A stretch of 63,835 nucleotides of DNA, counting the filler, from Deltaproteobacteria bacterium (GTDB lineage Bacteria; JAEEML01), in assembly GCA_016283195.1 (NCBI GenBank). It is 6 parts of 6 records of this genome, joined end to end, with 100 filler letters (N's around TTAATTAATTAA, not from the genome) between each part and the next. Parts side by side here need not be neighbours in the genome. Positions count along the whole stretch, not along the records: positions 59,388 to 63,835 come from JAEEML010000138.1; 5 more parts are not named here. One strand, given 5' to 3'. This document shows, one piece after another, positions 1,055 through 63,835 of the stretch (position 1 is the first letter of the stretch; every line of letters starts with the position of its first letter). The notes below the pieces were generated by a model. That model ran no database searches and was not told the origin of the DNA. It worked only from the letters and a program-made list of their open reading frames with translations. The position numbers and the translations under genes were made by a program.

Positions 1055-3418
1055 ATGATTATGTCGGAACTTGATGATTATAAGCAAAAAGTAAAAGAGC
1101 AACTTACTAAAATTTGCCGGGTTATCGCTCAAATATCGGCCGGTAATTATAGTGAGCATTTAAATCTTTTCCCTATAGCTACCGAAGAATACAGCGAATT
1201 TTTGTTTGGTCTCGATATCTTGCTGAATGACCTCATAAAAACGCGCCGCGATTTGGAAATCCAGCAGGCTTATCATAAAACCCGCGCCGAAATTTGGCGC
1301 CGGGCTTCCATGGCTTATGATTCTCCGCAGGAAATGCTCGATAATTTGTTAAGTGTTCTCATTGAGGCTTTTAATTTGGATGTAGCCGGTTATTTGGTGG
1401 CCGGTAAAGAGGATGAAAATTATCGTTGTTTGGCCGCCAAGGCAACGGAAGAGATTAATTACACTGTTTTTTCTCTCCCTAAAAGCTTTATTTCTCCCCC
1501 CTCCGCCGAGTGTAGTTATTGTACTATTGCTTTGGGCGATGAGTCGCCGCTTTTTCATGGTGATGCGCCGGATGAACTGCGTATCAGTGCCGATGCCGTA
1601 CGCAAACTAAAACTCAAATCCATGATGGGCGTTTTTGCTTATGATGCCGTCAGCAGTGCCAATGTCGGCGTGGTTATCGGCAGTAAAAATAAGCGTCAAT
1701 GGAATACCCATGAAGAGCACACCATAGCTTCAATGACGATGATTTGCCATGCGCGAACCTTGCAACTTAAAATGAAAGAGGAGCTGGCTACAGCTAATAT
1801 GCGCCTGGAAAAAGAGGTGGCGGCGCGTACCGGAGAGCTCAATAATCTCAATATGCGCCTCACCAACGACCTTATTTACAGAGAGCAAGTTGAGCGCAAA
1901 CTCCGCGAAAATATGGAACTTTATCGCGCTCTGGTGGAAACGATTCCCGATTCTATTCTGGTTGTGGTCAGCGATGGCACCATTAGGCGCATCAATTCGG
2001 CCTCTTTGAATGTTTTCCACGCGCGGAACGAAAAAGAGCTTATAGATCATAATATTGCTGAATTTATTGAAGAATATGACCTTACAACCACCAAAGCTTA
2101 CAAGACTTTGGAGCGCCAGGTGAAATGCTGTGACGGCAATAGCTGCCTATGCGAAATAACCATTACCGATATTGTCTTTTCCGGGCCTAATCAAGATGCG
2201 GCTCGCCTCTGCCTGGTGCACGATATAACCGAGAGACGGCGCCAGGAAAGTGAGCTTGCGCGCATTCAAAGTCTTGAATCTATTGGTATTTTAGCGGGCG
2301 GTATAGCTCACGATTTTAATAACATCCTTTCCGGTGTGGCCGGCAATCTTTATTTGGCCCGGGAGCTTTATCCCAAAGAGCCGCAAAAATCACTCTCGCT
2401 TTTGGATGTAGCCCATCACTCTATTATAAAAGCCAAACATTTAACCGGGCAACTCCTGACTTTTGCCAAAGGCGGCGCTCCCATTAAAGAAACATTATCC
2501 ATTAAAAATATTTTAGACGAAGCTGCAACTTATGCTTTGGCCGGCTCAAAAATGGCCTACCATTTTGCGGCCAATAACAAATTGAAACTGGTGGAGGGAG
2601 ATCCCACACAACTGGTGCAGGTTTTTAGTAATTTGCTTTTGAATGCCGCTCAGGAGATGCAGCAGGGGACGATTGATCTCGAAGCCGAAACAGTTGATAT
2701 AAAAGATTATGATGAGGAACATTCCCTGCCGGACGGAACTTATGTCCATATTATGGTGGCCGATCGCGGCGGTGGTATTTCCGCCGAGAAAGCGCCTTAT
2801 ATTTTTCACCCTTATTATACCACGAAAAAACAAGGCACCGGTCTTGGGCTTACAGTGGTTTATTCTATTGTGCAACATCATGGCGGTGTGGTTTATCATG
2901 CTCCGCGAGATGGCGGAGGGACGATTTTTCATGTTTTTCTACCGGCCAGCAATGTGGAGGAACAACCACTAAAAGTAAAAGAAAAATCATCGGTTACCGA
3001 TAATGTGGAAATCACCAATAAGCGCCTTTTGCTCATGGACGATGACGAAGATATTTTGACTATGCTTGGCGAACTCTTTACTTTTATGGGCTATGAACCA
3101 TCCCTCGCCAAGAACGGTGAAGAAGCTCTGAAAATATATAAAGAATCCCAGGCCAAAAAGCAGCCTTTCGCAGTGGTTATTTTGGATTTAACCATTACCG
3201 GCGGCATGGGCGGCAAAGAGACAATCGGCGAATTAAAGCAACTTGATCCCGATGTTTATGCCATTGTAGCCAGCGGATACTCCAACGATCCGGTGCTGGC
3301 CAGTTATAAAGAATACGGCTTTAAGGATATTTTAACCAAACCCTATACTATGGAAGAGTTAAAAGAAGTTTTGAAAAGAGCTTTTAATTCCAAGCAACTT
3401 CAGGAACCGGAAGCCTGA
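1055..3418 (+). CDS. Hybrid sensor histidine kinase (GAF-like/PAS/HisKA/HATPase/REC)
   Basis: H-box AGGIAHDFNNIL, QVFSNLLLNA, DRGGGI, GTGLGL, C-terminal receiver LLMDDD...ILDLTI...KPY. Confidence 0.93.
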   Translation: MIMSELDDYKQKVKEQLTKICRVIAQISAGNYSEHLNLFPIATEEYSEFLFGLDILLNDLIKTRRDLEIQQAYHKTRAEIWRRASMAYDSPQEMLDNLLSVLIEAFNLDVAGYLVAGKEDENYRCLAAKATEEINYTVFSLPKSFISPPSAECSYCTIALGDESPLFHGDAPDELRISADAVRKLKLKSMMGVFAYDAVSSANVGVVIGSKNKRQWNTHEEHTIASMTMICHARTLQLKMKEELATANMRLEKEVAARTGELNNLNMRLTNDLIYREQVERKLRENMELYRALVETIPDSILVVVSDGTIRRINSASLNVFHARNEKELIDHNIAEFIEEYDLTTTKAYKTLERQVKCCDGNSCLCEITITDIVFSGPNQDAARLCLVHDITERRRQESELARIQSLESIGILAGGIAHDFNNILSGVAGNLYLARELYPKEPQKSLSLLDVAHHSIIKAKHLTGQLLTFAKGGAPIKETLSIKNILDEAATYALAGSKMAYHFAANNKLKLVEGDPTQLVQVFSNLLLNAAQEMQQGTIDLEAETVDIKDYDEEHSLPDGTYVHIMVADRGGGISAEKAPYIFHPYYTTKKQGTGLGLTVVYSIVQHHGGVVYHAPRDGGGTIFHVFLPASNVEEQPLKVKEKSSVTDNVEITNKRLLLMDDDEDILTMLGELFTFMGYEPSLAKNGEEALKIYKESQAKKQPFAVVILDLTITGGMGGKETIGELKQLDPDVYAIVASGYSNDPVLASYKEYGFKDILTKPYTMEELKEVLKRAFNSKQLQEPEA

Positions 3419-4304
3419 TTTCTTCGCTACGGGGCTGCGGCCTAGCTTGGTCTCTTGCTGTCCAGAGTCTAAAGGCGCCCGATTTAACCAGCGCTTGTAA
3501 AAGTTCGGCATGGAGAGCATGGCCGCCTTTATATATTTCGACAGCCCCAATAAGCGGCGCTCCTAAAAGAGCTAGATCACCAACGGCATCCAGTGCTTTA
3601 TGGCGCACAAATTCATCGGGATAACGCAAGCCGCCGGGATTAAGAACATTGTAATTATCTATAACAACAGCGTTTTCAAGAGAACCGCCCAAAGCCAGAC
3701 GGCGTTCTTTTAAAGCCTCTATATCTTTTAAAAAGCCGAAAGTGCGGGCCCGCGCTAATTCTTCGGTGAAAACGGCAGTGGAAAAATCAGCGGCAAAAGT
3801 TTGCCGGCCGATTAAAGGATGAGGAAAATCAATAACATATTTTAAAGATAGGGTAGAAGCCGGGGAGATGGTAGCCCATTTGTCATTAAGGCGCACCGTA
3901 ACTTTATCGGTGACTACGGCAAACTTTTTTTGGGCTTTTTGTTTTATTATACCGGATTCTTGCAACATACAAACGAAAGGAGCGGCGCTGCCGTCCATAA
4001 TGGGAACTTCCGGCCCGCCGACTAATACGCGAGCATTATCGATACTTAAGCCCATAAAGGCGGCCATTAAGTGCTCGATAGTTTTTATGGCATTTTCCCC
4101 CTGGCCGATGGTGGTAGCCAGTTCGGTGCGGGTAACGAGGTCGTAGCGAGCCGGCATAACCAGAGGATCTTTAATATCGGTGCGCTCAAAAGTGATGCCG
4201 TGGCCAGCCGGGGCGGGAAGTATCTCTAATCTAATGGATTTACCGGTGTGCAGCCCGATGCCGACACAACCTATTTTTTCACGAATGGTGCACTCTCTCA
4301 CCAT
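3384..4304 (-). CDS. lpxC: UDP-3-O-acyl-N-acetylglucosamine deacetylase
   Basis: GIGLHTG, TIEHLMAA, PIMDGSA, ARARTFGF, EFVRHKALDAVGDL; AAGGAG RBS before ATG at 4304. Confidence 0.97.
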   Translation of the reverse strand: MVRECTIREKIGCVGIGLHTGKSIRLEILPAPAGHGITFERTDIKDPLVMPARYDLVTRTELATTIGQGENAIKTIEHLMAAFMGLSIDNARVLVGGPEVPIMDGSAAPFVCMLQESGIIKQKAQKKFAVVTDKVTVRLNDKWATISPASTLSLKYVIDFPHPLIGRQTFAADFSTAVFTEELARARTFGFLKDIEALKERRLALGGSLENAVVIDNYNVLNPGGLRYPDEFVRHKALDAVGDLALLGAPLIGAVEIYKGGHALHAELLQALVKSGAFRLWTARDQARPQPRSEEIRLPVPEVAWN

Positions 4305-4538
4305 AAAATATTTCTCCTTTGGCCATTGAATTGGCCGGATACCACTCTCAAATTCGTTGCAAAAAACATACCAACTTTTTACCCGGGCCAAAGGCCTAGG
4401 ACGGAGAGCGGTAACATGGTGCTTTTAGCTTTATAACGGCTTGCAATGAGGCCAAAAAGCGCAAGCAGACCGCCTTCTAGCATACAACTTTTTAAATGGC
4501 AAGATTAGGGAAGAAAATTGCAAAGTGCGACAAAAATG

Positions 4539-11260: not shown

Positions 11261-11360
11261 NNNNNNNNNNNNNNNNNNNNNNNNNNNNNNNNNNNNNNNN
11301 NNNNTTAATTAATTAANNNNNNNNNNNNNNNNNNNNNNNNNNNNNNNNNNNNNNNNNNNN
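11261..11360. other. Artificial contig spacer
   Basis: 100 nt of N with central TTAATTAATTAA (stops in all six frames). Confidence 0.98.
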
Positions 11361-14450: not shown

Positions 14451-15659
14451 ATGAGGCTTATTATGAGTAATTTAGTAAAAATTTGTTTTGCTATGTCGGC
14501 CTTTGCTTTAATCTCTTGCGGTACCGAACAACCCACCGGTGAAGCGCAGGGGCAAAAAACCAGCAATAACAACCAACCACAACCCAAAACAACCTGCAAG
14601 CCCGGTTTTTATGGCCAGGATTGTAAGGCCTGCACCTGTCAAAACGGCACCTGTGATGATGGCATATCCGGCGATGGCAGCTGTTCTTGTGATGAAGATT
14701 GGATCGGCCAAAATTGTGACACAAAAATACTGTGCCGTCATGGTACTCTTGACCCGCAAACCGGGAATTGCCTGCCTGGGAGCTGTGAGGAGAAATACAA
14801 CGGTGAAAACTGTAATGAATGTAAAGACCAGCTCAAAACCGGGGAAAATTGCGATAAATGTCTAAATTCCCGTATGACCGGCGAGCGCTGTGACATAGAA
14901 ATTCTTTGTAAAAATGGTACTCTCGATACCCAAACCGGCCACTGTTTAAGCGATTCTTGTGATTCCAAATTCATCGGAACCGATTGTGACATAGAAATTC
15001 TTTGTAAAAATGGCACTCTCGATACCCAAACCGGCCATTGCCTAAATGGTAGCTGCGATAGCCTCTTCACCGGTGATGACTGTAATGAATGCGTATATGC
15101 ACCAATGACTGGACCAAAGTGTGACCAGTGCAAAAACAATAAGCTTGGCCCAAAATGCGATATAGATACAGTAAATATAAATGGCCAAACCTGGGCAGCT
15201 AAAAATATGTATGGCACTGTCAGCAATGATGGCAGCAATGTTACTTGCTATGCCAATACCAAGGAAGATAGTAATTTTGAAGCTAACTATGGTTGCCTAT
15301 ATATTTGGGAAGATGCCCAAAAAATGTGTCCAACCGGTTGGCATTTGCCTACAGAGACAGAGCTTAATAAACTGCTTACTTATGCGGGCGGAGCCCGCCC
15401 CACCGGGTCTCAAAATTTACGGGCCACCAGCTGGGAGAGCGGTGCCGATAAATATGGCTTTGGGGCCCTGCCCGCCGGCAAATACTACGGCAACGACAAC
15501 AGCTCCTTCTACGATGCGTTCGGGTCGTATGCCAATTTCTGGTCGCAGAGCGAGGACGATAGCGACAATGCGTTCCGTTTGTCCCTGAGTACCAGCTATG
15601 CGAGCGTGAATACCGCCGCTAAGAGGTACGGCTACTCGGTTCGCTGCATTAAAGACTAA
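14451..15659 (+). CDS. Lipoprotein with EGF-like Cys-rich repeats and a C-terminal FISUMP (Fib_succ_major) domain; candidate DGR target
   Basis: Lipobox-like ALISC; C-x-C...G-x-x-C repeats; INGQTWAAKNM, YGCLYIW, CPTGWHLPT, GFGALPAG, FWS, YSVRCIKD. Confidence 0.9.
   Translation: MRLIMSNLVKICFAMSAFALISCGTEQPTGEAQGQKTSNNNQPQPKTTCKPGFYGQDCKACTCQNGTCDDGISGDGSCSCDEDWIGQNCDTKILCRHGTLDPQTGNCLPGSCEEKYNGENCNECKDQLKTGENCDKCLNSRMTGERCDIEILCKNGTLDTQTGHCLSDSCDSKFIGTDCDIEILCKNGTLDTQTGHCLNGSCDSLFTGDDCNECVYAPMTGPKCDQCKNNKLGPKCDIDTVNINGQTWAAKNMYGTVSNDGSNVTCYANTKEDSNFEANYGCLYIWEDAQKMCPTGWHLPTETELNKLLTYAGGARPTGSQNLRATSWESGADKYGFGALPAGKYYGNDNSSFYDAFGSYANFWSQSEDDSDNAFRLSLSTSYASVNTAAKRYGYSVRCIKD
14889..15045 (+). 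repeat. Intragenic tandem repeat (96-bp period) encoding CDIEILCKNGTLDTQTGHCL
   Basis: Near-identical copies start at 14889 and 14985; a diverged third copy lies near 14715. Confidence 0.9.
15465..15659 (+). other. Putative DGR variable region
   Basis: After PAG-AAA none of the next 51 codons ends in A; variable-loop codons are NNC/NNT around fixed scaffold codons. Confidence 0.6.
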
Positions 15660-15731: not shown

Positions 15732-15918
15732 GCAAATTTACATGAATTTACAAATATTTTGTGGGGTGAGGTCTGGGTGGCGGCCAAGGCGGCTAGCCCC
15801 GGCTAAGCCAGCGCAAACAAAAGTAGCGGGGTTTCTCCACTAACAGAAAGAAGCAGCATAAAATCAAAGAGTATTATCTCAATAAACTGGCCTTGCAGTT
15901 AAGAAAAGATAGGGCCGC

Positions 15919-16878: not shown

Positions 16879-16978
16879 NNNNNNNNNNNNNNNNNNNNNN
16901 NNNNNNNNNNNNNNNNNNNNNNTTAATTAATTAANNNNNNNNNNNNNNNNNNNNNNNNNNNNNNNNNNNNNNNNNNNN
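16879..16978. other. Artificial contig spacer
   Basis: 100-nt N-run with TTAATTAATTAA. Confidence 0.98.
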
Positions 16979-21626: not shown

Positions 21627-23144
21627 TTAGTTCACCGGCTTCATGGTGGGGAACAAAATAACATCGCGGATGGAGGCGTTATTGGTTAAGAGCATAATCA
21701 GCCGGTCTATGCCGATGCCGCAACCGCCGGTTGGTGGCAGGCCGTATTCCAGAGCGCGCACATAGTCATAATCGCACTCGTGGGCCTCTTCGTCGCCAGC
21801 CGCTTTTTGGGCCACCTGCTCCTCAAAGCGGGCCAGCTGGTCGGCCGGGTCGTTGAGCTCGCTAAAGGCATTGGCCAATTCGTGGCCAGTGACATAGAGC
21901 TCAAAGCGCTCCACCAGGCGCGGGTCGCTCTCTTTTTTGCGCGAAAGCGGCGAGACATCTTTGGGAAAATCCATGATAAATGTTGGATTTACCAGCTTTT
22001 CTTCGCATGAAGCTTCAAAAATGGCCGCCACCAGCTTGCCGTGAGTCACCACTTTTTCTTCTATGCCCAGGCGCCCAGCCACCGCTTTGGCTACCTCAAA
22101 GTCATCAAAAACATTTTCTTCTATGCCGCCGATTTCGCGGATGGCCTCAGCCATGGTGAGGCGCTTCCACGGGCGAGCCAGCGAGACGCGCTTATCGCCA
22201 TAAGGCAAATAGCGCACGCCGTCTTCCACTTCGCCCAGGTTAAGATTATCGGCCACAGTACAAATGAGGTCTTCCACCAGATCCATGAGTTTTATGTAAT
22301 TGCTATAGGCTTCGTAAAACTCAATAGTGGTAAATTCGGGATTGTGAGTGGTGTCCATGCCCTCGTTGCGGAAGCAGCGGTTAAGCTCAAAAACGCGGTC
22401 AAAGCCGCCCACTACCAGGCGCTTTAAATAGAGCTCCGGGGCAATGCGCATATAAAGCGGAATATCAAGAGCGTTGTGGTGCGTTTTAAAGGGGCGGGCT
22501 GCCGCGCCGCCGGCCATGGTGTGCATCATCGGCGTTTCCACCTCGATATAGCCCTTATCTTCCATAAAGCGGCGCACCTCACTCACAATTTTGGAGCGCA
22601 GCATGAGCGTTTTGCGCGATTCTTCATTGACCACCAGGTCAACATAGCGCTGGCGATAGCGGGCTTCCGGGTCGCTAAAGGCATCAAAAGTCTGGCCGTC
22701 TTTGCGCTTTACCACTGGCAACGGGCGGATGGCTTTAGAGAGCAGGCGGAAGGAGTCGGCGTGAATGGTGAGTTCGCCGGTTTTACTCTTCATCAAGTAG
22801 CCGCTAAGGCCAATAATATCGCCAAGATCGGAGAGCTTAAAGACGCCAAATTCTTTCTCGGTAAGGTCGTTTTTGCTCACATAGGCCTGGATGCGCCCAG
22901 TGCGATCCTGAATACGCAAAAAGGCCGCTTTGCCAAAGGAATTTAGAGCCATAATGCGCCCGGCAACAGCTACCACAATGTGTTTTTCCCTAAGCTCTTC
23001 GCCATCTTCCGCGCCGTACTTAGCCGCAATTTCGCTGGCTAGAGCATTTGGCTCAAAATCATTGGGGTAAAACTTTTCGCCGAGGGCCAGGGCGGAGGCC
23101 AATTTCTCTTTTCTTACCGCTATTTGCTCGCTAACTTCTTCCAT
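21627..23144 (-). CDS. lysS: Lysine--tRNA ligase (class II)
   Basis: RYRQRYVDL, GGAAARPF, LRIAPEL-like YMRIAPELYLKRL, HNPEFT, GLPPTGGCGIGIDRL. Confidence 0.98.
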   Translation of the reverse strand: MEEVSEQIAVRKEKLASALALGEKFYPNDFEPNALASEIAAKYGAEDGEELREKHIVVAVAGRIMALNSFGKAAFLRIQDRTGRIQAYVSKNDLTEKEFGVFKLSDLGDIIGLSGYLMKSKTGELTIHADSFRLLSKAIRPLPVVKRKDGQTFDAFSDPEARYRQRYVDLVVNEESRKTLMLRSKIVSEVRRFMEDKGYIEVETPMMHTMAGGAAARPFKTHHNALDIPLYMRIAPELYLKRLVVGGFDRVFELNRCFRNEGMDTTHNPEFTTIEFYEAYSNYIKLMDLVEDLICTVADNLNLGEVEDGVRYLPYGDKRVSLARPWKRLTMAEAIREIGGIEENVFDDFEVAKAVAGRLGIEEKVVTHGKLVAAIFEASCEEKLVNPTFIMDFPKDVSPLSRKKESDPRLVERFELYVTGHELANAFSELNDPADQLARFEEQVAQKAAGDEEAHECDYDYVRALEYGLPPTGGCGIGIDRLIMLLTNNASIRDVILFPTMKPVN

Positions 23145-23213: not shown

Positions 23214-23427
23214 TGCGGCGGAAAGACAAGGGGGGAGCGCTTGGCCTTTTTGCGCCATCATCTCCCGGCACTCTCTGCCTGCGGCGCCCTCACCCCACAG
23301 GTAGTGGAAATTATGGCATATCACCCTCTCCATTTTTACAAATAGAGAGGGCTCATCTTGTTGAATTTTCACATATTTTGTTGAGTGAGGTGCAACGGAA
23401 GTAGCGGAGGTTTTCCCCAAAAAAGAA
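23214..23427 (-). repeat. Intergenic repeat-family copy (MITE/REP-like)
   Basis: Reverse complement of 23402-23427 equals 60451-60476 (26 nt exact); rc of 23214-23225 equals 60508-60519; rc of 23288-23299 equals 15760-15771. Confidence 0.75.
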
Positions 23428-23444
23428 AGGTATAAATCTAACTC

Positions 23445-33889: not shown

Positions 33890-34004
33890 GTTCACCTGCC
33901 GCTGCGTGCGGTGCCCACGCCTTCATTAGATGAAAATATTGGAAAATATAGAGGAAAAAGAAATTTTAACTAACTAAAAATGGTACTATGAGGGCGGTTA
34001 GTCC

Positions 34005-34283
34005 CTAATGCAGCGCGCGAAGAAGGCGTTTTTGCCGCAAGTAACCCGCCACCACTTGCATATCGGCCGTTTTAAATTTAGCTATTTGCTCTTCACTTAA
34101 AAAGGCCAGGGGCAGAAGGTTTATTTTATAATCGTTAAAATATGGTTCAAGCCCTTGTGGCAGTTTTACAAGTTCATGCAAAGAAAGATAATTATTCCAA
34201 TCTGTTACCCCAAAATAAACTACCAGGGTTATTACCGGCACAACGCTTTGGCGTTTTTTGGCGACCAGTTCTTCCAGCTGGGT
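34005..34283 (-). pseudogene. Fragment of an Rpn-family (PD-(D/E)xK nuclease/putative transposase) gene
   Basis: PVITLVVYFG...W...SLHEL...YFNDYKINL...FLSEEQIAKFK matches the mid-region of Rpn-like proteins; no N-terminal part, bounded by a REP-like element. Confidence 0.6.
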
Positions 34284-36916: not shown

Positions 36917-37016
36917 NNNNNNNNNNNNNNNNNNNNNNNNNNNNNNNNNNNNNNNNNNNNTTAATTAATTAANNNNNNNNNNNNNNNNNNNNNNNNNNNN
37001 NNNNNNNNNNNNNNNN
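36917..37016. other. Artificial contig spacer
   Basis: 100-nt N-run with TTAATTAATTAA. Confidence 0.98.
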
Positions 37017-44395: not shown

Positions 44396-46198
44396 ATGAA
44401 AAAAATTGTGTTTGTGACCTCGTTGATGTTGTGTGCTCTAATGGCTGTAAACTGCAACAATGAAGACTCTAAGCCTCAGGACGGTAACACCAAAACCGAC
44501 AGCGGCAAAGAGCAAAAACCAACCAAACCGAGTGATGGCAACAGCGATGCCAATACCGACAAGCCAAAGCCGCAAAAATGTGACCCAGGCTTCTTTGGTT
44601 CTGAGTGCACTAAGTGCCAGGATTGCGGCCCCAATGCCACTTGCAATGACGGCAAAAGCGGCGATGGTTCCTGTATTTGCAAAAACGGCTTCTTTGGTAA
44701 TACTTGCACAGCCTGCCCCAATTGCGGCGAGCATGGCACCTGCGATGACGGCAACAAAGGTGGTGGCTCCTGTATATGCAAAAGCGGCTATAAAGGCACA
44801 CTTTGCGACGAAGCCGACGAAGATATTATAAATACCAATTTCAGCAAATGTACCCGCCCGGGCGGCGAATATAATCAAGTTACTGCCGATTTCTGCCAAC
44901 TCACAGATACTCGTGACAAGCAAAAATACCAGGTTGCCCTTATCGGCGAGCAAATTTGGACAGCCGAAAATATGCGCTACGCCGTCCCGGAACACTTTTC
45001 GGCAGGTAACGAATCCGCAAACGACAACACCTATGGCCTCTTATATAATTATAATGTGGCTCAAAATGTTTGCCCTACCGGTTGGCATCTGCCCACAAAG
45101 GCCGAGTTTGAAGTTCTTCGCGACTATGTCAAAGCCAACAGAACCAGTAGCTCTCTCTTAATCGCCTTCCTGGCTAAAAGTGCCTTATGGACTAATCATT
45201 CTAACGAAGGCAACGATGATTTTGGCTTCAGTATGTTACCGGCCGGTATCAAAAATATTTCCGAAGTTGATGGCAGCAGCTCTTTTGACAACTTAGGCAA
45301 AGCTGCCTTCATTTGGACTGCTACCGCCAACCCGGTTGTCGCTAATCCAGATGATGAAGAAGAAGAGGAAGAGGAAGCAGAAAAGGCTTATTTCTTCGGT
45401 GCTACCCTCACCAGCCAAATCTCAATCAGCAGTATTAGAGAAGATAGCGCCCTTTCGGTACGTTGTTTGCAGGATATCGACAATTGCGGCGAGCACGGCA
45501 CTTATAGCCGAGAACTGGCCAGATGCGTATGCTCCGATGATTATGTCGGTGATAAATGTGATACTAAAGTTGTAGTTACTCCCAGCGGCAACAATTTCAG
45601 CAAATGTACCATGAAAAACGGCAAATACGACCAGGCAAAAGATAGCGACTGCGTAATCACCGATACCCGCGATAATGAAAAATACCAAGTCGTACTAATC
45701 GATAAACAGGTGTGGCTACGTGAAAATATACGCACCAAACAGGGCGTGCAAAGCTCTTACCATTCTGCCAATAATGATAGCAAAAATGATAAAACTTACG
45801 GCCTCTTATATATGTGGAGCGATGCCAAAAATATCTGCCCCGAAGGCTGGCGTTTGCCTACAAAAGCCGAATTTGAGGATCTATTGCGCTATGCCGGCGA
45901 TGAATCGGATATTCAATTGCTCAAATTAAGAGCCGAAAAATGGACTGTGAATGATTGGGGTGAAGAAAAGAGCGGCATGGATTCTTTCGGCTTTGGTGCT
46001 CTGCCCGCCGGCCGCTGGGATGGCCGAGAAAGCGAACCGGAGCAATTCGGCATGGATACCAGTTTTTGGTCCGGCGAGGAGCCGCCAGATAACAAAACCT
46101 TAGCCTATTATTTATACCTGAGCACCGAAGAACTGGAAGCCACCGTAGCCCGTTCTACCAAAAATGATTGGAACTCTGTCCGCTGCATAAAAGAATAA
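44396..46198 (+). CDS. Lipoprotein with EGF-like repeats and two FISUMP domains
   Basis: AVNC lipobox-like; CNDGKSGDGSCICKNGFFG repeats; two TDTRD..Y..V.I..Q.W..EN / YGLLY / CP.GW.LPT / LPAG / SVRC units. Confidence 0.9.
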   Translation: MKKIVFVTSLMLCALMAVNCNNEDSKPQDGNTKTDSGKEQKPTKPSDGNSDANTDKPKPQKCDPGFFGSECTKCQDCGPNATCNDGKSGDGSCICKNGFFGNTCTACPNCGEHGTCDDGNKGGGSCICKSGYKGTLCDEADEDIINTNFSKCTRPGGEYNQVTADFCQLTDTRDKQKYQVALIGEQIWTAENMRYAVPEHFSAGNESANDNTYGLLYNYNVAQNVCPTGWHLPTKAEFEVLRDYVKANRTSSSLLIAFLAKSALWTNHSNEGNDDFGFSMLPAGIKNISEVDGSSSFDNLGKAAFIWTATANPVVANPDDEEEEEEEAEKAYFFGATLTSQISISSIREDSALSVRCLQDIDNCGEHGTYSRELARCVCSDDYVGDKCDTKVVVTPSGNNFSKCTMKNGKYDQAKDSDCVITDTRDNEKYQVVLIDKQVWLRENIRTKQGVQSSYHSANNDSKNDKTYGLLYMWSDAKNICPEGWRLPTKAEFEDLLRYAGDESDIQLLKLRAEKWTVNDWGEEKSGMDSFGFGALPAGRWDGRESEPEQFGMDTSFWSGEEPPDNKTLAYYLYLSTEELEATVARSTKNDWNSVRCIKE

Positions 46199-56480: not shown

Positions 56481-56580
56481 NNNNNNNNNNNNNNNNNNNN
56501 NNNNNNNNNNNNNNNNNNNNNNNNTTAATTAATTAANNNNNNNNNNNNNNNNNNNNNNNNNNNNNNNNNNNNNNNNNNNN
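56481..56580. other. Artificial contig spacer
   Basis: 100-nt N-run with TTAATTAATTAA. Confidence 0.98.
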
Positions 56581-59287: not shown

Positions 59288-59387
59288 NNNNNNNNNNNNN
59301 NNNNNNNNNNNNNNNNNNNNNNNNNNNNNNNTTAATTAATTAANNNNNNNNNNNNNNNNNNNNNNNNNNNNNNNNNNNNNNNNNNNN
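59288..59387. other. Artificial contig spacer
   Basis: 100-nt N-run with TTAATTAATTAA. Confidence 0.98.
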
Positions 59388-60268
59388 AAACGCTATGGAA
59401 AGACTTTAATAAGTGGTTTCTTTCCGGCACTCTGGATATTTTAAAAGCGGTGCTAAGCATCATGGATAAAGTAGCTAAGATGTTACCACCGAAAGATGAT
59501 AGCTCTGAAGAAGCTCGTAAGTTCCGCTGGCAACGTGAAGAGTTTTTAACCAAAATAGCCAGGAAGGCCATTAAAGAAAATAATCCGCAACTACTAAGTC
59601 TTATTGTAAATAATACAAAATTTGACATAAATGCACTGGATAACCATGGTTATGACTCTGCTGGTCACTTTTTGGAGCGAGCTATTAGGTCTAATGAAAC
59701 TGAGATAGCCAAAATACTTATTAAAGCCGGTATAAAAACTAATGTATCCTATCTGCGTAATGAACATAGCCCACTTATGTGGGCGGCAAGTCGTGATGAA
59801 GCAGAAATAGTTAAAGCGCTCTTAGAAGCCGGCGCCGATCCCGATTATCACCCAGAATTCAATAATGATAAAATAGAAAATGGTGATGTGTATAATAGCC
59901 CTACACCACTGATGTTGGCCGCGAGAAACGGTGCCAGCGAATCGGCCAGCCTGCTGATAGAAGCCGGCGCCGATATAAATAAAGAAGATTTATTTGGCGT
60001 AACTCCGCTGATGAAGGCTTTGGTGCGCGGCTATACTTCTATAGTTCGCCTCCTCATCAAAGCGGGGGTAAACCCCAACCAGCGCCTTAATGAGTTTGGG
60101 GTAACTCCGCTGATGGTGGCCAGCGCTTTTAATTATCAGGATATGGTCAAAATGCTGCTTGAAGAGGGGGCAGATGCCAATATAGCTAATAAATTCGGGA
60201 AGAAAGCGCGGGATATTGCCAAAGATGAGGAGATGAAAAAGATACTGAGCGGCGGCAGAGGAAAATAA
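59388..60268 (+). CDS. Ankyrin-repeat protein (5' truncated)
   Basis: SPLMWAA, TPLMLAA, GVTPLMKA, GVTPLMVA, LL.AGAD repeats; frame open back to the contig start. Confidence 0.92.
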
Positions 60269-60450
60269 GACAGCGGGTCGCACATATTTGTCGGCTCCTT
60301 CCCTTCACTAAGCATTGGATTATACGCTTTCATAATGTCTTTGTCACCTTCCGGCGGCCCGCTCAACAGTAATTAGTGAAAATAGCGGTCTCCTTTTTCT
60401 TAGCTGTTATGCCAGTTTCTTCCCGCTACTAATTCTTGATTTTATTCTTA

Positions 60451-60840
60451 TTCTTTTTTGGGGAAAACCTCCGCTAATTTCGAAGCGCTCAGGTTTTCCC
60501 CAAACCCCTTTCCGCCGCACGACAAAGGGACACCCTTGGAACCCGAACGTTCAATGAAAATGGCTTTGTTTATGATATGTTACAAAATTGGTCACTTCTG
60601 GTGTGCCTTAAAAGCCAGAGGCCCCACTTGAGATCGGGTATGGATAGCCTGCCTCTGGCTTAGGCGGGGCTGCGCCCCGGCACCCCGCTAGGGCTCAGTT
60701 GTCAAATACCATTCGGATCGCGATCCGCCTTACGGCGGAATAGTTTTGGCCGGCGGCCGCTGCGGCTGCGCCGCTGGCTGGCCTCCGGCTTAAGCCTCCT
60801 GCTACGCTGGGGGCTGTTCGCCTGGCGCTTCGCGCCTGGC
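60451..60840. repeat. Dense array of GC-rich palindromes (REP/MITE-like)
   Basis: 14-bp IR 60457-60470/60491-60504; 11-bp IR 60612-60622/60651-60661; GGGGC-TGC-GCCCC; TCCGCC-TTAC-GGCGGA; 60820-60840 hairpin. Confidence 0.8.
60820..60840 (-). other. Putative DGR target-recognition hairpin
   Basis: Minus strand GCC-A-GGCGC-GAA-GCGCC-A-GGC immediately after the TGA of the FISUMP gene. Confidence 0.6.
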
Positions 60841-61045
60841 TCACGGAGAGTCCTTGAGGCAACGCACGGAAAAAGCGTAATTCTTGACGTCGATGCCTAC
60901 ACCCGCATAGCCATCACCCAAGATCAGGCGGCAGGCGTCGTGGCTACTGCCCTCGCGCTCCGTGGCCGACCAGAAGTAGGCGTAGTAACCGAAACGGTAG
61001 TAATCGCCACCGTAGTAGCGGCCGGCGGGAAGCGCCGAAAAGCCA
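60841..61045 (-). other. Putative DGR variable region
   Basis: Abrupt switch from A-rich to A-poor sequence; 38 of 48 codons after PAG end in C/T and only one in A. Confidence 0.72.
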
Positions 61046-61449
61046 AAATCATTTTCCGCTTCATTTTTTGCTTCTAGCCAGTGTGGTGATTTGGCTGCCA
61101 GAGCTAAAAAGTTATTTTGACTAGTGCGATTAAGTTCCACATATTTTAAAAGTTTTTCAAAATCTGTCATTGTTGGCAAATGCCAACCGGCCGGGCAGAC
61201 TTTTAAAGCATTTTCCCATGAATACAAGAAGCCATACATTTTGTCGTTTTCATTATCACCATCAGCGGACCAATGGGGTAAACCCTTAAAAGCCATATTT
61301 TCGGCCATCCAGGTTTGATTGCCGATTTTTACTGTTCGGTAAACATGGCCATCACGTGTATCGGTAAAAGAGCCGTATTGCTGGGCAAAAGCTGTTGCCG
61401 GAGTGACTAATAAAAGAGAAAAAGCAAATAATTTAAAAAGATTGTTCAT
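60841..61449 (-). CDS. Secreted single-domain FISUMP protein; candidate DGR target
   Basis: Signal peptide (ATAFA), FTDTRDGHVYRTVKIGNQTWMAEN, YGFLYSW, CPAGWHLPT, GFSALPAG, FWSAT, FSVRCLKD; GGAGG RBS before ATG 61449. Confidence 0.93.
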   Translation of the reverse strand: MNNLFKLFAFSLLLVTPATAFAQQYGSFTDTRDGHVYRTVKIGNQTWMAENMAFKGLPHWSADGDNENDKMYGFLYSWENALKVCPAGWHLPTMTDFEKLLKYVELNRTSQNNFLALAAKSPHWLEAKNEAENDFGFSALPAGRYYGGDYYRFGYYAYFWSATEREGSSHDACRLILGDGYAGVGIDVKNYAFSVRCLKDSP

Positions 61450-61491
61450 TGCTGCCTCCTGGGTTTTAGTGTGCATCGAAGTAGCTTAATT

Positions 61492-61827
61492 TTAAATTTT
61501 AGTGATAGTACTTGTTGTTCCGCCTTGTATAGTAATATTCAGATTAGTAAGGTTAATCCATGTTACAAGAACTTTGGATTCGGAGCCCTTCTTGTCGTTA
61601 TTACTGATAACAACGCCGACTGCCCTGATTTCGGTTGTTTTTTTGGTTTCGCGAAAGTGTTTTAACAAGAGAACATCACCGATTTTAATACTATTGATAG
61701 CAGTATCATAATTTGTGAAAGCGCTTTGTTTATAGTCCGTTGTCCAATAGTTTTGTTGAATAAAATCATCAGACATGTCTTGTGTACCATTTTTCCACAT
61801 ATAACCTACCAAATATGCATTAGCCAT
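61492..61827 (-). CDS. AT-rich hypothetical protein
   Basis: GAGG RBS; 111 aa; SIKIGDVLLLK...IRAVGVV...VLVTW resembles PUA/EVE-like beta domains. Confidence 0.6.
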   Translation of the reverse strand: MANAYLVGYMWKNGTQDMSDDFIQQNYWTTDYKQSAFTNYDTAINSIKIGDVLLLKHFRETKKTTEIRAVGVVISNNDKKGSESKVLVTWINLTNLNITIQGGTTSTITKI

Positions 61828-61940
61828 ACTAACCTCCTAGCACCATTCGTGCCCCAAAATTTTTGTACCTCTTGCAAGAGGTAGTCTTATTGTTAACACA
61901 ATAAGACTAATATAATTGCCAAGCGGCGCCTGGACTAAAA

Positions 61941-62027
61941 TTGGCGCGATCGCCCGCCTGCGGCGGGCGCCAAATTGACCGAGAGGCCGGAGTAGGGTGC
62001 AGGGGCAGCCGCCCCGCCTTAGTGAAC
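61941..62027. repeat. Palindromic repeat-family copy, inverted relative to 60662-60688
   Basis: CGCCCGCC-TGC-GGCGGGCG stem; rc of 61992-62019 resembles AGGCGGGGCTGCGCCCCGGCACCCC at 60662; rc of 62015-62027 equals 57002-57014. Confidence 0.65.
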
Positions 62028-62174
62028 TCCAGTTGAAAAAAACAGTATAAAAGGTTATATACCGAGCGTTTCTGGTGGTTTTACCAGTTTTGCTTAGTAG
62101 AAAAAGCCATCCCAGATTTGACAAAGTGGCAGCAGGAGAGAAAAACACTAAGAAAGAATTCAAGGAAAAAACGC

Positions 62175-62933
62175 ATGAAATTAATATATTCACTCTTATC
62201 TGTAACACTTTTGACTGCCTGCACCGTTCCGGCACTCCAAAGTAACAACCAACCGGCGGAGGAAAAAGGAGCCATGACGCCGCCAGACGCCATAAAGCAC
62301 GACCCGGCTCATCCGCCCATTGATTGCCCCTTGCGCAAACAGGGCATCGACCCCGGCAAATTAAAGCCCTTTGAACAAATGGAAGCCTATATCAACTTTT
62401 TGGATCAGGAGAGTCGCAAGGTTTGGCAAAAACCGCAGGAAGTGGTGGCCGCCATGCAGCTAAAAGGCCATGAACGGGTGCTCGATTTGGGGGCCGGCTC
62501 CGGCTATTTTTCTTTCCCCATTGCCGAAAAGCTCCCGCTGGGGCGCCTTTTTGCCGCCGATGTAGAGCCGGAAATGGTGCGCCATATTCACCACAAAGTT
62601 ATGGCGCAAGGCATTAAAAATATTGAAGTATTGCTCATAGACCCCGAAAAGCCCAAGTTGCCGGAAAATATAGATTTGGTTTTTATTTGCGACGTGTTGC
62701 ACCATGTAAAAAATCCTAAGGACTGGCTAACTGGCATCACGGCACAGCTCCCGATTGGCGCACAAATACACATAATTGAGTTTAAGCCGGGCGACCTGCC
62801 AAACGGCCCGCCGGAGAGCGTCAAAATGGCTCCGGAAAAGTTAATAGAAATCGCTCAAAGCTGCGGGCTAAGGCTGGAGAAGCGCCTGGATGAGCTTTTG
62901 CCATACCAGAATTACTATGTGTTTAAAAAATAA
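62175..62933 (+). CDS. Class I SAM-dependent methyltransferase, lipoprotein
   Basis: Lipobox LTAC; WQKP.EVV, VLDLGAGSGYF, AADVE, CDVLHH, LPYQ. Confidence 0.88.
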   Translation: MKLIYSLLSVTLLTACTVPALQSNNQPAEEKGAMTPPDAIKHDPAHPPIDCPLRKQGIDPGKLKPFEQMEAYINFLDQESRKVWQKPQEVVAAMQLKGHERVLDLGAGSGYFSFPIAEKLPLGRLFAADVEPEMVRHIHHKVMAQGIKNIEVLLIDPEKPKLPENIDLVFICDVLHHVKNPKDWLTGITAQLPIGAQIHIIEFKPGDLPNGPPESVKMAPEKLIEIAQSCGLRLEKRLDELLPYQNYYVFKK

Positions 62934-62968
62934 GATAACATCATGAATTTAAAGAGAAAAAAGATAAA

Positions 62969-63061
62969 ATGCTGAACTCTTTGGTGGTGGCACTTGGCGG
63001 GGTGCTTGGAGCCTTGGGGCCTAAAACTCTCGCTATTGGTGCTGATGATAGAAAAGAGTAA
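62969..63061 (+). pseudogene. Possible remnant of a fluoride channel (FluC/CrcB) gene
   Basis: MLNSLVVALGGVLGALG matches the FluC TM1 GGxxGA motif, but the ORF is only 30 aa. Confidence 0.35.
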
Positions 63062-63073
63062 TTTGAGAAAAAC

Positions 63074-63835
63074 ATGAATTTTTTGCACCATTTACTTTTT
63101 ATGTTTGAAAGCGAATATGAGGCGGCGCTTTTAGATGAACTCACCCGCCTTTATCCTGATGGGCAACATATTGCCCACTTTGGCGGCTGGCTAGATAGCC
63201 GTTTTAATGGCGAAATAAGCGGGCTGCCCTGGGCTTTTGCCCGCCAGGTATTAGTGGATCCAATTGATATTAAAGGCTTATCCATCAGCCAGACTGCCCA
63301 GGCCATTCATGAGGCGGCCATGGCTAAATTGCCAGATTCTGCCGGCCCGCTAAGAGTGCATATTTTTGGCCCGGAGCAGGAGTCCGGCTCGGTAGCCTCC
63401 GCGCGCGGGCGCATTTTAGCCGGCGAGCTGGAAAAATTTTGGGCTAAAAAGCAGCGCCGCCTTTTGCGCGCCTGGCAAAAAGATGAGGAGGCGCCCTGGG
63501 CGGAGGATGAGTCTCTTATTCAGGTGGCTCTTTTAGCGCCGGAAAATTGCTGGCTCACAGTGAATACAGCGGCTGAGCGGCAGCAAATCGGCCCAACTCT
63601 CTCGCGTTACCCGGCCGGGCTGGTGCAAGTGCCAATTGACCACAAGCCGCCAGCCAGAGCTTACCAAAAACTTCTGGAAGCCCAGCGGCACCTGGGGCGC
63701 TATATTACTAAAGGTGAAACCTGCGTTGATTTGGGGGCCGCACCCGGTAGCTGGAGTTACGTGGCTCTGGCCCAGGGCGCCAGGGTGATTGCTCTTGACC
63801 GCGCCCGCCTGCGCGATGATTTAATGGACAATAAG
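63074..63835 (+). CDS. RlmM-like 23S rRNA 2'-O-methyltransferase (FtsJ fold), runs off the window
   Basis: Manual translation: ...WAFARQVL...PPARAYQKLLEA...CVDLGAAPGSWSYVALAQGARVIALDRA. Confidence 0.8.
   Translation, partial: MNFLHHLLFMFESEYEAALLDELTRLYPDGQHIAHFGGWLDSRFNGEISGLPWAFARQVLVDPIDIKGLSISQTAQAIHEAAMAKLPDSAGPLRVHIFGPEQESGSVASARGRILAGELEKFWAKKQRRLLRAWQKDEEAPWAEDESLIQVALLAPENCWLTVNTAAERQQIGPTLSRYPAGLVQVPIDHKPPARAYQKLLEAQRHLGRYITKGETCVDLGAAPGSWSYVALAQGARVIALDRARLRDDLMDNK

Follow-up and report, generated by a model that had tools for sequence, protein, structure and literature searches.

One gene in the stretch of DNA analysed here (the window, 63,835 nucleotides) ends in a tract that was very probably written at some time by a diversity-generating retroelement (DGR), a known bacterial means of varying a binding surface. 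The balance leans slightly towards the tract also being a live target of a DGR in the same genome. The product of the gene is best explained as a secreted binding protein with a C-type-lectin fold that belongs to the FISUMP family. With the DGR placed elsewhere in the genome, the gene would be a remote target. The window consists of six contigs joined via N44-TTAATTAATTAA-N44 linkers, and the gene lies on the last of these (59388-63835), a complete metagenome contig of 4448 bases to which one record of the metagenome_contigs collection, L079, is identical over 4448 bases. The original prediction had proposed a DGR variable region with a target hairpin, and this proposal is now supported by a sister tract on another contig (L078), by the asparagine columns of related templates, by a shared hairpin motif and by the predicted fold.

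The target gene occupies 60841..61476 on the minus strand, where it forms an open reading frame of 211 aa. Its likely start is the second ATG, at 61449, which gives a protein of 202 aa, and it is this 202-aa form that is found as database entry P0001. The protein is a full-length FISUMP/Fib_succ_major member, as both family profiles score far above their cut-offs: PF09603 matches with an E-value of 3.2e-30 and 106.2 bits (cut-off 33.9) over profile positions 1-187 of 187, and TIGR02145 (NCBIfam) with 160.9 bits (cut-off 41.65) over profile positions 1-176 of 176. Judged by eye from the translation, residues 10-31 (61384..61449, minus strand) resemble a signal peptide, with a hydrophobic core ending in AFA and no lipobox cysteine. 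In the predicted structure of the protein, pLDDT is low (51-59) at model residues 1-20.

Placement of the host relies on its LysRS and assumes that the LysRS contig and the contig of the finding come from one organism. This LysRS reaches no more than 48% identity to those of the 236 matching Fibrobacterota genomes (296 searched), 52% to those of five other genomes and 55% to the named proteins found, and two further LysRS relatives stand at 92% and 84% identity. No tRNA or tmRNA genes were found in the window.

The variable-region tract covers 174 nt at 60850..61023 on the minus strand (codons 152-209), beginning at the ALPAG glycine and finishing at the RCLKD aspartate, two codons short of the stop (TGA at 60843-60841). 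Composition switches abruptly at the tract, and the switch is not due to amino-acid content. Third-position A is found in 44 of the 151 codons that precede the tract (codons 1-151) but in 1 of the 58 within it (Fisher p = 2.6e-6), the background in seven large genes of the window being 20%. NNY codons make up 83 of the 151 codons before the tract versus 46 of the 58 inside it (p = 0.0014), and A on the coding strand amounts to 32% in the N-terminal part versus 14% in the tract. Counted per 100 nt, the GC fraction is 0.58-0.71 over 60588-61037 versus 0.31-0.45 over 61038-61837. The codons quoted in the original prediction read as written in 60841-61476 (minus strand), the compositional switch that it described is present in the sequence, and its count of 38 of 48 codons ending in C or T is exact for codons 153-200. 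The last 27 nt of the tract (60850..60876, minus strand), which encode AFSVRCLKD, are identical in the window and L078 and constitute, by analogy with known systems, a candidate IMH-like homing end.

Used as an anchor, this 27-mer has exactly two matches in metagenome_contigs, one on the window's own contig (L079) and one on L078, a contig of 6294 bases that shares its record-name prefix with the window's contig and belongs to the same assembly. The original prediction had looked to a second copy of its two anchors for the template; an exact second copy of both does exist on L078, but it is a variable region and not the template. The L078 tract (3052-3219, minus strand) ends a different gene, which encodes a 457-aa protein with an N-terminal TIR_2 domain (E = 1e-12), a hydrophobic span (by eye) and PF09603 (E = 1e-27). 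Upstream of the tract, the window and L078 domains are ordinary paralogues: their DNA is 63% identical, and 19 of the 54 codons for the same residue differ synonymously.

Inside the tract, 36 of 56 aligned codons are identical between the two genes, and these include every non-variable codon. Counted over codon positions 1, 2 and 3, the base differences number 15, 13 and 1 (29 in all), which places 28 of them at positions 1-2, and the only third-position difference is A against G. In 23 of the 29, one copy has A, and of the 20 codons that differ, 19 take the form NNY in the window and L078 alike. Inside the tract, 1 of 37 same-residue codons differs synonymously, versus the 19 of 54 upstream (Fisher p = 1.8e-4). 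Changes at codon positions 1-2 that yield NNY products and no stops are the pattern that a DGR would be expected to leave.

At the differing sites A is present on both sides, seven times in the window and 16 times in L078, so neither tract is the template of the other; AAY codons are retained at six places in L078 and at one in the window. Just 5′ of the tract, all three third-position differences (in three codons) are without A, and the 5′ border is placed at 61023 accordingly. The L078 tract is 6 nt shorter than that of the window, which argues against both being fresh copies of one template of one length. The 21 adenines common to both tracts suggest that many template adenines were left unchanged or are held by selection. 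Homology between the two contigs stops at the Asp codon of RCLKD, and no hairpin directly follows the stop codon on L078, the nearest lying about 45 nt away. The comparison supports the L078 tract as a second variable region, presumably written from the same or a near-identical template, rather than as the template itself.

Loci in which FISUMP targets stand beside their template and enzyme were found in Fibrobacterota. The set comprised 296 genomes, centred on the genome of locus L002 with the phylum read as Fibrobacterota, and RVT_1 matches occur in 115 of them, a tally that takes in the unpublished genome G254, on which no other result depends. Among 20 regions examined around reverse transcriptases of DGR-like size and score, 11 contain repeat pairs in which 70-100% of the mismatches have A (or T) in one copy, and five of these 11 translate to peptides of the ALPAG...FWSATE...SVRC type, like that of the window. 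With a profile built from four tails (A2), three further loci of this kind were identified: L179, L180 and L185, the last of which combines one template with three variable regions. The same profile has matches in 196 of the 296 genomes, and a single genome can have as many as 218 first-look candidates. Comparison with the window drew on genomes G158, G122, G200, G140, G094 and G228 and on loci L139, L140, L179, L141, L180, L185, L136 and L148.

In L139 and L179, a target with PF09603, the same domain as in the window's protein, is followed on one strand by an accessory gene of 267 or 273 aa, the template and the RVT_1 gene, the target lying about 1 kb upstream of the template and RVT_1 gene. 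Loci of this type show that, in these genomes, precisely this portion of FISUMP proteins does undergo template-driven rewriting. As in the window, the variable region of the Fibrobacterota loci closes the gene, extending from ALPAG to SVRC/L.KD. Their template and RVT_1 gene follow about 1 kb downstream, whereas none of these is found on the window's contig. The tract peptides are 32-54% identical to that of the window, whose host is not a close relative (LysRS at most 48% identical).

The Asn codons of these templates fall on the columns at which the window and L078 differ. In the L179 template, Asn occupies 17 of the 19 differing columns versus 4 of 40 agreeing ones (p = 3e-9). The corresponding counts are 17 of 19 and 5 of 41 for L136, 16 of 19 and 6 of 41 for L185, 14 of 19 and 5 of 41 for L148, and 12 of 19 and 3 of 41 for L139, and the p-values across the five proven templates range from 1e-5 to 3e-9. 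Like the two tracts compared here, proven template-variable pairs can differ by indels, with for example 18, 6, 5 or 3 gap columns, and a single non-A mismatch (T against C) separates template from variable region near the 3′ end in L139 and L140.

Directly 3′ of the stop codon, 9 nt past the tract, lies a GC-rich hairpin with a GAA loop (60820..60840, minus strand). It is present at 60840-60820 precisely as the original prediction spelled it: GCC, A, GGCGC, the GAA loop, GCGCC, A and GGC, which amounts to 5+3 bp around an A-A mismatch. Folded as DNA, it reaches -9.1 kcal/mol (z -2.96), and 2 of 200 shuffles were as stable. The wider motif TGAGCC-N(8-26)-GCGAAC, at 60816-60843, has one match in the window against 0.10 expected, and it was found in 10 of 185 loci. 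Four of these ten matches are hairpins past a FISUMP stop, namely those on the window's contig and at L139, L140 and L141, which thus have in common the order of TGAGCC, hairpin and GCGAAC after the stop. The other six, located in the antisense of a conserved QTWMAEN coding region, were rejected as chance matches. At the variable-region ends of L139 and L140, the TGAGCC seen in the window recurs at the stop, and a short GC stem closed by a GAA loop separates it from GCGAAC(A/G)G. In L141 these flanks are kept, but the stem, still complementary, has another sequence and its loop has 4 nt. The hairpin element is absent from the matching template ends.

A hairpin of this kind has a precedent in Bordetella phage BPP-1, where, as described in PMC3240598, one located 4-34 bp past the variable region is needed for efficient homing. 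The hairpins presented there have GC-rich stems of 7-10 bp; in BPP-1 a 4-nt GRNA loop is critical, and it is the structure of the stem, not its sequence, that matters (PMC3240598). The spacing of 9 nt and the GC stem in the window fit the range given for BPP-1 (PMC3240598). In detail the two elements differ, BPP-1 having an 8-bp stem and a 4-nt GAAA loop, whereas the window has 5+3 bp with an A-A mismatch and the 3-nt GAA loop, which does not fit the GRNA consensus. Both BPP-1 (Mtd) and the window place the variable region at the 3′ end of a gene for a C-type-lectin fold. However, avd-TR-brt adjoins the target in BPP-1 and none of these stands beside the window's gene, and the BPP-1 target is a phage tail fibre, whereas the window's is a gene of a bacterial chromosome.

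The fold of the target protein was modelled with AlphaFold from an 82-row alignment (pLDDT 92.6). The best structural match of the model is TvpA (PDB 2y3c; Z 10.4, rmsd 3.7, 155 residues aligned), and further matches are the C-terminal domain of Lcl (Z 9.4), TaqVP (Z 8.3) and Mtd (Z 7.7). These Z-scored matches came from a wide VIA search, while Foldseek alone returned no match at E ≤ 0.001 (best E 7e-3). TvpA, from the host-associated Treponema denticola, is a DGR variable protein with the same fold as that predicted for the window's protein, although sequence identity between the two is just 12%. Within this fold, TvpA is a member of the formylglycine-enzyme-like branch. In the model, pLDDT is 96-99 across the junction of the AT-rich and GC-rich parts of the gene. 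The tract thus lies at the 3′ end of an open reading frame predicted to encode a C-type-lectin fold, as would be expected of a DGR target.

Searches for the template and the reverse transcriptase extended from the window to several sequence collections. No template was found in the 63.8-kb window by a repeat finder, by both anchors with up to three mismatches or by word-7 BLAST of 60780-61100; these searches returned just short paralogue matches (36 nt at 81% and 32 nt at 81%), which were rejected as template. A template repeat was likewise not found on L078. Scanned exactly, the 27-mer anchor had no match in genome_contigs or viral_contigs, and in metagenome_contigs it returned no template, just the two variable regions, while an 18-mer internal anchor had no exact match in viral_contigs. 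These scans use exact words, so a template differing inside the anchor would be missed, and the 27-mer lies at the extreme 3′ end of the tract, a place at which template and variable region need not agree. BLAST of phages and plasmids gave nothing, and profile A2 matched 168 patterns in viral contigs, none of which was confirmed. No RVT_1 or Avd family member was detected in the 43 window open reading frames of at least 140 aa or in the three L078 open reading frames scanned.

With two candidates per genome scored, the tract DNA matched 14 of the 296 Fibrobacterota genomes at E ≤ 1e-6, the best match being 74% over 95 nt. The 19 loci inspected (L080-L098; 15 from this search and four from another) have A-poor coding tails, and none is template-like. 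In genome_contigs, 77 loci contain relatives that are at most 44% identical, except for the partial L076 (65% over its best segment). Two borderline A-biased self-BLAST pairs in L016 and L048 (53 and 52 nt) were set aside as too short and weak. Four public runs from gut or sediment were examined as sparse, low-depth contigs; they showed no read-level variation in the tract, a result that at this depth speaks neither for nor against such variation. One contig of run X3 (record 20, 193 nt) has 0 differences from the window over 60993-61185, and X3 may be the source sample; a contig of run X2 tracks 61059-61434 with 24 differences and then continues with sequence unlike the window. The template that the original prediction spelled out is only approximate, with AAY placed at several codons that are identical in both variable regions.

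In a DGR, the reverse transcriptase would copy a template repeat to cDNA and misread template adenines randomly. Here, the cDNA would replace the stretch bounded by the conserved ALPAG codons on one side and by the invariant 27 nt on the other, and the hairpin just past the stop would mark the integration site. About 20 template AAY codons could each become any NNY codon, by which the ligand-binding face would be varied and no stop codons would arise. We infer that the organism possesses the cognate template and enzyme and that rewriting of the site continues.

A somewhat unlikely alternative is that the tract is a relic: a DGR would have written it long ago, or before transfer from a donor, the genome would since have lost the working template and reverse transcriptase, and the tail would now evolve like any other coding DNA. 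Neither a template nor a reverse transcriptase turned up in any DNA searched, the two tracts differ in length by 6 nt, just one AAY codon remains in the window's tract, and the genome G224, whose tract type is the closest, does not appear in the list of those with an RVT_1 match, all of which would suit a relic. However, the genes of the window and L078 are both intact, as is the hairpin, which matches those of live loci. In addition, the 37 same-residue codons show no synonymous differences without A, which indicates that little time has passed since writing.

The tract could also have arisen with no retroelement at all, through C-terminal gene conversion between paralogues followed by diversifying selection on the binding face of the lectin, the NNY-rich and GC-rich make-up then being a habit of FISUMP genes. 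FISUMP tails of such shape are indeed widespread, as the matches of profile A2 in 196 of 296 genomes attest; the third-position bias recurs, in another sequence type, in a paralogue within the window (14451-15659), and G224 paralogues are similar upstream of the tract too. Yet the double-domain paralogue at 44396-46198 is without this bias, which is therefore not a constant of the family, and selection leaves unexplained why adenine is involved in 23 of the 29 differences and why 28 of them fall at positions 1-2. This origin is also made improbable by the near-absence of synonymous change (1/37 versus 19/54, p = 1.8e-4), by the coincidence of the variable codons with Asn codons in real templates (p as low as 3e-9) and by a hairpin motif outside the coding sequence that proven targets share. 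An assembly artefact, in which the AT-rich N-terminal part was misjoined to a GC-rich tail at ALPAG, is scarcely credible. The window is built from metagenome contigs, and in P0002 an N-terminal part that matches the window's protein at 127 of 139 residues precedes a different tail (29 of 61). But the X3 contig spans the junction at 60993-61185 with 0 differences, in a run that may itself be the source sample; the GC-rich block has lower-GC DNA on both sides, and two wrong joins would be needed; and the reading frame and domain are continuous, with pLDDT 96-99 at the junction.

P0002, a protein from another sample that is 77% identical to the window's protein, shares 127 of 139 N-terminal residues with it and 29 of 61 in the tail. 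The P0002 tail and that of P0020 are identical at 42 of 61 positions with no gaps, while their N-terminal parts share 64 of 122, so that, on protein-level evidence, tails appear to travel as modules of a given template type. P0018 and P0019, which have other architectures, carry the window's tail type. A supposed paralogue end near 34000 in the window proved to be a Transposase_31-like fragment and not FISUMP.

A further reading, an unlikely one, is that the variable tract and its 3′ recognition element form a portable module by which one retroelement recruits targets across paralogues and lineages. The cDNA of a DGR could then overwrite any FISUMP paralogue that keeps the ALPAG and SVRCLKD ends. 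If true, this would explain P0002, a near-identical orthologue whose tail belongs to another template type and is shared with an otherwise 52%-identical protein, as well as the occurrence of one tract in both a TIR-transmembrane protein and a small secreted protein. It would further explain a hairpin element common to an unplaced gut lineage and Fibrobacterota, and the hundreds of FISUMP tails that resemble variable regions.

FISUMP targets of DGRs are already in print, and the window's tract is one more, with a known mechanism. Table 2 of PMC4159848 gives nine Fib_succ_major proteins as DGR targets in human-microbiome data, and 43 targets with this domain are counted in a survey of MAGs (PMC11661182). 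Among the Pfam domains listed for the survey targets, Fib_succ_major and DUF1566, the window shares the former (PMC4159848; PMC11661182). As presented in these sources, the survey targets were called from template-variable pairs near a reverse transcriptase, whereas the window's tract stands alone on its contig (PMC4159848; PMC11661182).

What the present case adds is a remote DGR target, well supported, from a gut bacterium that is uncultured and has no close sequenced relatives. It also illustrates that a lone variable region is recognisable without its template, from codon-position statistics of a sister copy, related templates and a shared hairpin element. Template-free recognition of this sort is useful for fragmented metagenomes, since standard DGR callers need a nearby reverse transcriptase. 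In the sister target on L078, a membrane span links the variable lectin domain to a cytoplasmic TIR domain, an arrangement like that of a receptor. DGR targets with TIR domains have been published for other architectures (PMC10907252).

A separate observation concerns the DNA beyond the hairpin. The GC-rich block extends about 240 nt past the stop, to about 60600, a feature absent from the original prediction. By GC scan and RNA fold, 60600..60819 (minus strand) is a structured, GC-rich (63-71%) non-coding stretch, and an Rfam scan of the contig at E ≤ 1 gave no matches, this stretch included. The RNA fold of 60590-60850 reaches -120.1 kcal/mol (z -3.06) and is more structured than shuffles. 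The last hairpin of the stretch, together with the T run after it, is probably a terminator. A second GC hairpin follows the first one at L139, L140 and L141 too.

The sister copy of the tract, on a second contig of the same assembly (L078), belongs to a gene for a 457-aa protein (3049-4422, minus strand) that carries TIR_2 (E 1e-12) and FISUMP domains. Besides TIR_2, this sister target contains a low-complexity linker, then a hydrophobic span (judged by eye) and then the FISUMP domain, whose tract is of the same type as that of the window target. The protein has a receptor-like layout, with the variable lectin outside and the TIR inside. It also matches a family of Thoeris type III TIR proteins weakly (E 6e-10, under the family cut-off).

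Downstream of the sister target, L078 encodes an intact Transposase_31 (YhgA/Rpn-like) protein of 297 aa (1765-2658, minus strand). Fragments of such genes occur in the window at 60278-60349 and 34023-34283, and the former is 97% identical to the intact L078 gene over 72 nt; the window and L078 targets therefore share a kind of neighbour, which is broken in the window. A 35-nt GC-rich match (94%) between window 61936-61970 and L078 885-919 sits outside the genes common to both contigs.

Two further FISUMP paralogues are encoded in the window. One, a 402-aa protein with EGF-like repeats (14451-15659, plus strand), ends in 67 codons whose third position is 3% A and 52% C. The sequence of this tail is of a different type from the target's tract, and no hairpin lies directly 3' of its stop codon; this tail is a possible second variable region, derived from a different template. 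The other, 600 aa long and carrying two FISUMP domains (44396-46198, plus strand), served as an internal control, and the third-position bias is absent from both of its FISUMP tails.

The tails nearest to the window's type are those of a Fibrobacterota genome, G224, in which two paralogues have identical 195-nt tails (L183 422-616 and L184 1044-1238) and differ by 10% over the 400 nt upstream. The list of genomes with a match to RVT_1, the reverse-transcriptase family, does not include G224. In two Fibrobacterota DGR loci with PF09603 targets, the accessory genes encode proteins of 267 aa (L139 6536-7339, plus strand) and 273 aa (L179 4288-5109, plus strand) that share 29% identity and have no Pfam family. 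The C-terminal third of one of them weakly matches the model of the DGR accessory protein Avd (E 3e-4; 21 bits, where the cut-off is 80).

Around the window target, a 111-aa ORF on the same strand (61492-61827, minus strand), with no Pfam or NCBIfam family, ends 15 nt ahead of the target ORF in its longest version. The stretch of about 170 nt at 60517-60685 has no Rfam match and is absent from L078; in gut-metagenome runs it is found on at most five different contigs per run at about 90% identity. It resembles an intergenic element present in multiple copies. A short intergenic repeat (60395-60504, 23396-23436 and 15820-15907; 88% over 42 nt, 72% over 89 nt) lies 3' of both biased-tail FISUMP genes and in one place elsewhere.

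Linkers of the form N44-TTAATTAATTAA-N44 occupy 11261-11360, 16879-16978, 36917-37016, 56481-56580 and 59288-59387; since the window consists of six separate contigs strung together, adjacency across any linker is not genuine. Judged by its LysRS gene (21627-23144, minus strand), the organism appears to be a member of a poorly sampled lineage: among 5.8 billion proteins this synthetase has just two close relatives (92% and 84%), beyond which identity falls to 55% or less, in mixed phyla.
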